Below are positions 1,414-2,240 of a stretch of DNA of 64,000 nucleotides, piece after piece (positions within the stretch are counted from its first letter, which is position 1; each line of letters begins with the position of its first letter). The position numbers were made by a program, and so were the translations under genes. The notes beneath the pieces were generated by a model. That model was given only the letters and a program-made list of their open reading frames with translations. It ran no database searches and was not told the DNA's origin. The stretch lies in the NCBI RefSeq assembly GCF_056746865.1, contig NZ_CM163382.1; one strand, 5' to 3'.

Positions 1414-2240
1414 GAAGAGTCTTTTGGCTGGTCGCCGCCGCTCTGTTACTGGCAGGGTGTGCAGGCGAAAAAGGCATTGTCGAGAAAGAGGGATATCAGC
1501 TTGATACCCGACGCCAGGCGCAGGCGGCGTATCCTCGCATTAAAGTGCTGGTGATCCACTACACCGCAGATGATTTTGATAGCTCGCTGGCGACACTGAC
1601 CGATAAGCAGGTCAGCTCGCATTATCTGGTCCCTGCGGTACCACCGCGATACAACGGTAAACCGCGCATCTGGCAACTGGTGCCGGAAGAAGAACTGGCC
1701 TGGCATGCGGGGATTAGCGCCTGGCGCGGGGCAACGCGCCTTAACGACACCTCTATTGGCATTGAGCTGGAAAACCGTGGCTGGCAGAAATCAGCCGGAG
1801 TGAAATATTTTGCCCCGTTTGAACAGGCACAGATTCAGGCGCTTATTCCGCTGGCGAAAGATATTATTGCCCGTTATCACATCAAGCCGGAAAACGTAGT
1901 GGCACATGCGGATATTGCGCCGCAGCGCAAAGACGATCCGGGGCCGTTATTCCCCTGGCAACAACTGGCGCAGCAGGGGATTGGTGCCTGGCCGGATGCG
2001 CAGCGGGTGAACTTTTACCTTGCCGGGCGCGCGCCGCACACACCGGTAGATACCGCGTCATTGCTGGAGCTTTTGGCGCGCTACGGTTATGACGTTAAAC
2101 CTGATATGACACCGCGCGAGCAGCGGCGCGTGATTATGGCGTTCCAGATGCATTTCCGCCCGACGTTATACAACGGCGAAGCGGATGCAGAAACTCAGGC
2201 GATTGCCGAAGCGTTGCTGGAGAAATACGGGCAGGATTAG
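1410..2240 (+). CDS. amiD: N-acetylmuramoyl-L-alanine amidase lipoprotein AmiD
   Basis: 276 aa; lipoprotein signal [17 protein letters not shown]; amidase_2-like core; position between ybjQ and ybjS. Confidence 0.88.

Follow-up and report, generated by a model that had tools for sequence, protein, structure and literature searches.

The convergent genes amiD and ybjS of Escherichia coli very probably meet at an ordinary junction that has been compacted to the maximum, at which the spacer has been lost, read-through is limited by Rho, and the resulting RNA duplex is cut by RNase III. In the window (the whole 64,000-nucleotide stretch of the E. coli chromosome analysed here), the two genes lie tail to tail on opposite strands, as the open reading frames (ORFs) and the RefSeq annotation agree, and direct reading of the sequence gives one tetramer, TTAG, that is common to both ends (Table 1). 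The stop codon of amiD is TAG (2238-2240), and AmiD ends here in EKYGQD; the stop codon of ybjS is TAA, the reverse complement of the TTA at 2237-2239, and YbjS ends here in HGKLPR. That the two stops overlap within TTAG had been claimed in the first-pass annotation, and the window sequence, the ORF translations, and the RefSeq annotation confirm it. The RefSeq/PGAP coordinates recur in a strain of 100% identity and in three further ones, among them the strain with the most divergent junction found, and the annotation of K-12 MG1655 has the same overlap (amiD 904913..905743, ybjS 905740..906753).

Table 1. Gene boundaries and transcript features at the amiD/ybjS junction and other 4-nt overlaps (positions refer to the window)
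Feature	Position	Strand	Basis or remark
amiD CDS, N-acetylmuramoyl-L-alanine amidase AmiD, 276 aa	1410..2240	+	ORF and RefSeq annotation
ybjS CDS, NAD-dependent epimerase/dehydratase family protein, 337 aa	2237..3250	-	ORF and RefSeq annotation
Shared tetramer TTAG	2237..2240		amiD stop TAG and ybjS stop TAA
ATGA, ybjQ stop TGA / amiD start ATG, co-directional	1410..1413	+	sequence and annotation
TTAA, second convergent stop/stop overlap, ybjD (+) / ybjX (-)	14614..14617		sequence and annotation
ATGA, macA stop / macB start	16833..16836	+	sequence and annotation
ATGA, msbA stop / lpxK start	63976..63979	+	lpxK continues past the window end
Terminator-like consensus match, 5-bp stem, 8-nt loop, tail AGTTTTCTCG	2258..2285	+	inside ybjS CDS; judged non-functional
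Putative untranslated 3' tail of the ybjQ-amiD transcript, antisense to the 3' part of ybjS	2241..2615	+	published Rho region
Putative untranslated 3' tail of the ybjS transcript, running antisense through amiD	1586..2236	-	published Rho region
p19 dsRNA cluster in amiD, labelled 'Full & New AS'	1443..1601		U00096.2 904169-904327, PMC7373196 Table S1d/e

The genetic code leaves few ways for two genes to end on each other. A stop codon and a reverse-complemented stop codon cannot share one, two, or three bases, and therefore, 4 nt is the smallest possible overlap of convergent ORFs; it is possible only with TTAA, TTAG, CTAA, or CTAG. The amiD/ybjS pair belongs to this YTAR class, with the legal tetramer TTAG and both stops in frame, and is structurally identical (convergent, 4 nt, TTAG) to the 4-nt overlaps described by Lillo and Krakauer (2007), in whose data the same four tetramers cause a step at length 4 in the distribution of overlap lengths and the class is enriched in prokaryotes (PMC2174442). 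These authors counted 58 convergent overlaps in E. coli, and their Tables 2 and 3 hold 1890 convergent overlaps, 1218 of them of at least 5 nt, which implies that the 4-nt type makes up ~36% (PMC2174442); Huvet and Stumpf report 75 convergent overlaps in E. coli (PMC4161906). The K-12 interval matching the window has seven convergent junctions, with gaps of -4, -4, +72, +343, +34, 0, and +81 nt. The amiD/ybjS overlap is a case of a recurrent class and no statistical oddity of the site; the class has already been described, and the pair itself has already been catalogued. Another tightly packed convergent arrangement is seen in K-12 at 948659/948660, where no nucleotide separates ycaM (+) from ycaN (-); in the strain matching the window, ycaN is a pseudogene remnant of 111 nt (45740-45851).

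The four further 4-nt overlaps to which the first-pass annotation had pointed are all present (Table 1). At ybjQ/amiD, macA/macB, and msbA/lpxK, the upstream stop overlaps the downstream start on the same strand. Like amiD/ybjS, these ATGA overlaps have 4 nt common to two gene boundaries, but each ATGA pair lies on one mRNA, so that translational coupling is possible, whereas the genes joined by TTAG lie on two mRNAs and coupling is impossible. The second stop/stop case is ybjD/ybjX, which also appears in the list of 165 convergent excludons for MG1655 (PMC12288877) and behaves like amiD/ybjS in the placement of its Rho region. A published Rho region antisense to ybjD lies at K-12 position 917246 (-), corresponding to ~13730 (-) in the window, with a score of 15.9 (p 7e-53). 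Antisense RNA of ybjD amounts to ~48% of its sense RNA, which is consistent with read-through from the much higher-expressed ybjX across the TTAA.

Some features elsewhere in the window were recorded along the way. Strain 118UI equals the window over the first ~46.7 kb, save for one mismatch at 43327, and diverges from ~46689 onward, just past the pflA stop, where its genome contains, and the window lacks, a P2-like prophage (integrase, Cox, portal, terminase, capsid, and lysis genes). At the other end, positions 1-1028 had no match in the part of K-12 that was searched (902000-912000, with ybjP immediately upstream of ybjQ included). In 118UI, positions 1-315 are annotated as a pentapeptide-repeat pseudogene that is truncated, and in the window, an unannotated ORF of 286 aa with a GTG start spans 19-879. 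The region upstream of ybjQ varies from strain to strain. Furthermore, an ORF of 750 aa (46891-49143, +) runs antisense across almost all of pflB (46882-49164, -); pflB is a highly expressed gene with codon bias, and the antisense ORF is most likely its shadow.

Within the species, a 62-nt junction probe matched 5417 of 5426 complete E. coli genomes at an identity of at least 93.5%, and TTAG is kept in the junction variants inspected, including the most divergent one. When the longer ybjQ-amiD-ybjS-ybjT segment was searched, 6 of 5428 E. coli matches fell on plasmid-labelled records, which is unexpected for a core chromosomal region. For comparison across species, the amiD locus was taken from 80 species representatives of the Enterobacteriaceae, and both stops were located in each. 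A full-length ybjS convergent with amiD lies within the flank in 60 of them; in the other 20, the 3 kb downstream of amiD contain no full-length ybjS. The 4-nt overlap is found in 24 of the 60 (Escherichia, most Citrobacter, Salmonella, Klebsiella pneumoniae, the K. oxytoca group, and K. indica), a gap of 0-10 nt in 11 (e.g., 0 in Lelliottia, 3 in Kluyvera, and 7 in Raoultella), one of 11-100 nt in another 11, one of 101-200 nt in 4, and one of more than 200 nt in 10 (mostly Kosakonia and relatives). The non-overlapping spacers range from 0 to about 600 nt, and some contain REP elements or an extra gene. Among the 24 overlapping junctions, the tetramer is TTAA in 15, TTAG in 7, and CTAG and CTAA in one each. 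The central TA is invariant and the outer bases vary as Y and R, which is what the constraint of a double stop predicts.

The proteins keep their ends whatever lies between the genes. For most of the 60 species, AmiD, ending in EKYGQ[D/G], and YbjS, ending in HGKL[P/H]R, align with their last residues in constant places at any spacing, and the AmiD C terminus is conserved in nearly all of the 80 representatives; judged by this conservation, the stops of amiD and ybjS are evidently the true ends of both proteins. Since both C termini are fixed whatever the spacing, the overlap is best seen as the end state of spacer loss. The literature on this class (Lillo and Krakauer) favours mutation of a stop codon as the origin of convergent overlaps; for amiD/ybjS, deletion of the spacer is likelier, and we rejected an origin by stop-codon mutation, as neither protein is longer than in species with a spacer. 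The step can apparently also be reversed. In three Citrobacter species (L011, 3829-3947; L014, 3829-3934; L017, 3829-3939), a REP/BIME-like element of ~100-113 nt, made of paired palindromes such as GCCTGATGGCGCT...CGCTTATCAGGCCTAC and GCCGGATAAGGCG...CCATCCGGCA, lies between the genes at the exact place of the 4-nt overlap in related Citrobacter species. The hexamer TAACGC stands on both flanks of the element, and therefore, amiD and ybjS each keep a stop of their own; the element has the appearance of an insertion by which an overlap present in the ancestor was broken up. In Kosakonia (L033, 3805-4389) and Phytobacter massiliensis (L051, 3832-4407), an extra ORF of ~190 aa with a signal-peptide-like N terminus, co-directional with amiD, is found between the two genes. 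In L033, its stop is ~5 nt from the ybjS stop, which re-creates a tight convergent packing with a different partner. Superficieibacter (L029, 3832-3990) and Enterobacter sp. kpr-6 (L061, 3799-3956) have spacers of ~157 nt made of palindromic repeats, CCCTCACCCTAACCCTCTCCC...GGGAGAGGG...GGGTGAGGG, of a family different from the Citrobacter REPs. The lability of the junction argues against strong selection for the overlap itself.

With no terminator at the junction, a polymerase coming from either gene should read several hundred nucleotides of the partner in antisense. The RNA evidence on this point comes from published supplementary tables for K-12. Bicyclomycin treatment revealed two Rho regions (PMC7815308, supplementary file 2): one at 906118 (+), antisense within ybjS (score 4.27, p 4.9e-6), and one at 905089 (-), antisense within amiD (score 3.90, p 2.6e-10), the scores being taken over windows of 800 nt and not distinguishing read-through from antisense transcripts started at internal promoters. 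Transferred with an offset of 903503, these positions correspond to 2615, which is 375 nt past the amiD stop, and to 1586, which is 651 nt past the ybjS stop, and delimit the putative 3' extensions listed in Table 1. No promoter-like sites were found on the minus strand within 1000-3600 by a consensus scan. Downstream of the amiD stop (+), the C/G ratio is 0.76-1.25 over the first 400 nt, and a C-rich tract of the rut type is not clearly present; past the ybjS stop (-), only the first 75 nt are moderately rich in C (ratio of 1.73, ~95th percentile), and the ratio is then 0.8-1.4.

Double-stranded RNA is present on both genes. When duplexes of ~21 nt that RNase III had cut were captured with the p19 protein (Huang et al. 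2020), they amounted to 132-286 RPM for amiD and 210-269 RPM for ybjS, compared to 2-10 RPM for the upstream gene ybjQ (PMC7373196). Duplexes of 21-22 nt occur at several sites in both genes, and individual ones are spread along ybjS, the first of them ~85 nt from the junction (PMC7373196). The minus-strand Rho termination region falls inside the dsRNA cluster of amiD (transferred to the window with an offset of 902726). In total RNA, antisense reads amount to 15.9 RPM in ybjS, compared to 47.0 RPM sense, and to 2.1 RPM in amiD, compared to 95.7 RPM sense (PMC7373196). Furthermore, amiD-ybjS is among the 165 convergent excludons of MG1655, which were seen in at least 50% of 58 RNA-seq data sets (ExcludonFinder 2025, PMC12288877). 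The first-pass annotation had reasoned that the two transcripts must overlap at their 3' ends, which is logical and has the support of the excludon list, the antisense Rho regions, and the p19 dsRNA; its further statement that the overlap allows antisense interference is a permissive one and agrees with the published dsRNA data. The RNA overlap spans hundreds of nucleotides, compared to 4 nt for the coding sequences, and 3' overlap is typical of convergent operons in E. coli (276 of 370, ~75%, with a mean of 286 nt; Conway et al. 2014, PMC4161252), and therefore, the 4-nt overlap is not what creates the overlap of the transcripts. Read-through of the neighbouring gene, and not initiation at internal promoters, is probably the source of the antisense RNAs, although the amiD cluster carries the label 'New AS' in addition to 'Full'. 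Their effect on expression is presumably small.

Could the overlap be apparent only, one of the stops having been miscalled by a sequencing or frame error or by a choice of annotation, so that the genes do not in fact overlap? The chance of this is vanishingly small. We found no support for it: thousands of independent assemblies have an identical junction, the C-terminal peptides of both proteins keep their position at any spacing in most of the 60 species, and all four legal tetramers occur with an invariant TA at their center. The stop positions thus hold up against the sequence or frame error that the first-pass annotation had named as its possible undoing. The only ambiguity concerns the start of ybjS, whose ORF reaches a TTG at 3313 compared to the annotated ATG at 3250; the stop is unaffected. 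It is also very unlikely that an intrinsic or bidirectional terminator is hidden in the coding sequence just past the stops, in which case the transcripts would overlap by a few tens of nucleotides. Rho-independent terminators embedded in the coding sequence are predicted for ~20% of the genes in convergent overlaps of E. coli (PMC2174442), and indeed, a consensus site with the tail AGTTTTCTCG lies on the plus strand at 2258-2275. However, this site is weak, with five base pairs and an 8-nt loop, and four sites were found in the scan compared to 2.5 +/- 1.6 expected by chance; we judged it non-functional in view of this chance frequency, of its lack of excess stability, and of the lack of a Term-seq 3' end. 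The minus strand has no comparable site until 1509-1491. A search for inverted repeats within 150 nt of the junction found none, and no unusually stable fold was found in four 100-nt stretches on both strands (covering the 100-120 nt that follow either stop, with z-scores of -0.93 to +0.37 compared to shuffled controls); a hairpin followed by a U-tract was not seen near the two stops. Curated Term-seq 3' ends are lacking in K-12 905000-906199 in three growth conditions (Adams et al. 2021, PMC7815308), and so at 9057xx-9058xx, the place of the supposed terminator, which is weak negative evidence, since amiD and ybjS are expressed at a low level. Moreover, dsRNA and antisense reads reach far past the 2258-2275 site. 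The earlier statement that there is no intergenic room for a terminator is literally true, and inverted repeats, a stable fold, and a Term-seq end are lacking as well.

A different meaning of the same data would be that of a functional excludon, in which the overlap is selected and convergent transcription together with RNase III cleavage makes expression of amiD and ybjS mutually exclusive. For example, induction of ybjS transcription by Cpx would lower the level of the AmiD amidase. The pair is a member of the E. coli excludome (PMC12288877), dsRNA is found on both genes (PMC7373196), ybjS is listed as 2.3-fold up in a table of the CpxR regulon (PMC2731931), and 60 of the 80 species representatives retain the two genes in convergent order. 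Nevertheless, we consider this reading unlikely. The junction has been labile in evolution: the overlap occurs in only 24 of 60 species, a REP/BIME hairpin element of ~100 nt stands between amiD and ybjS in some Citrobacter and a whole extra gene in Kosakonia, and 20 species are without a full-length ybjS in the 3-kb flank. Moreover, sense RNA was not higher in two rnc mutants: in single samples of total RNA, that of amiD changed from 95.7 to 47.2 and 36.6 RPM and that of ybjS from 47.0 to 36.0 and 46.0 RPM (PMC7373196), which leans against mutually exclusive expression. About 75% of convergent operons overlap anyway (PMC4161252), and no anticorrelated expression of amiD and ybjS is documented in the literature that we found. 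A wider form of the idea, in which both amiD-ybjS and ybjD-ybjX are working excludons and induction of ybjS by envelope stress lowers AmiD, is less likely still; its tie to envelope stress is speculative, the CpxR regulon table being the one thing that points to it. The route could be collision of RNA polymerases or cleavage of the 3' duplex by RNase III, and the terminator-free YTAR junction could have been kept in Escherichia, Salmonella, Citrobacter, and Klebsiella because interference is guaranteed there. In any case, a regulatory role for the amiD/ybjS overlap is unproven.

The compacted junction with Rho-limited read-through, which we prefer, may be pictured as follows. Loss of a short intergenic spacer, with the stops unmoved relative to the proteins, would leave the 4-nt overlap, the sole coding cost of which is that a pyrimidine has to close the last sense codon of each gene. 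The overlap would then persist because any change of the central TA destroys both stops. Polymerases that run past the stops produce untranslated antisense RNA on which Rho may load; in K-12, termination would take place ~375 nt beyond the end of amiD and ~650 nt beyond that of ybjS, and collisions of converging polymerases may contribute to ending transcription. The complementary 3' regions could pair, giving a duplex that RNase III would cut.

The excludon concept is said to go back to Sesto in 2013. Like convergent excludons, amiD and ybjS are neighbours on opposite strands with overlapping transcripts and, according to published data, RNase III-processed dsRNA; however, excludons are defined by reciprocal repression, and amiD/ybjS, with Rho-limited read-through at low expression, is a putative one only. 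Bidirectional terminators between convergent genes were reportedly described by Ju et al. in 2019 by SEnd-seq. Such pairs are, like amiD/ybjS, convergent with overlapping termination zones in which head-on collisions of RNA polymerases are possible, but they have a stem-loop in the overlapping region and uniform 3' ends and are Rho independent, whereas at amiD/ybjS, the searches gave no stem-loop, published data list no discrete 3' ends, and bicyclomycin affects termination. The RNA polymerase collision model for convergent pairs also requires a stem-loop (bioRxiv 10.1101/2022.10.23.513370).

In sum, amiD/ybjS exemplifies how tightly convergent genes can be packed in E. coli, down to the physical minimum, with transcription then stopped by Rho, not by hairpins. 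If mutual repression were true, a peptidoglycan amidase and an uncharacterised gene of the epimerase family would be connected through it; the present evidence gives no call for this assumption. Junctions of this kind automatically yield antisense RNA and dsRNA. The comparison across species makes a small addition to this picture: the spacer is lost while the protein ends stay fixed, and the loss is reversible by insertion of a REP element.
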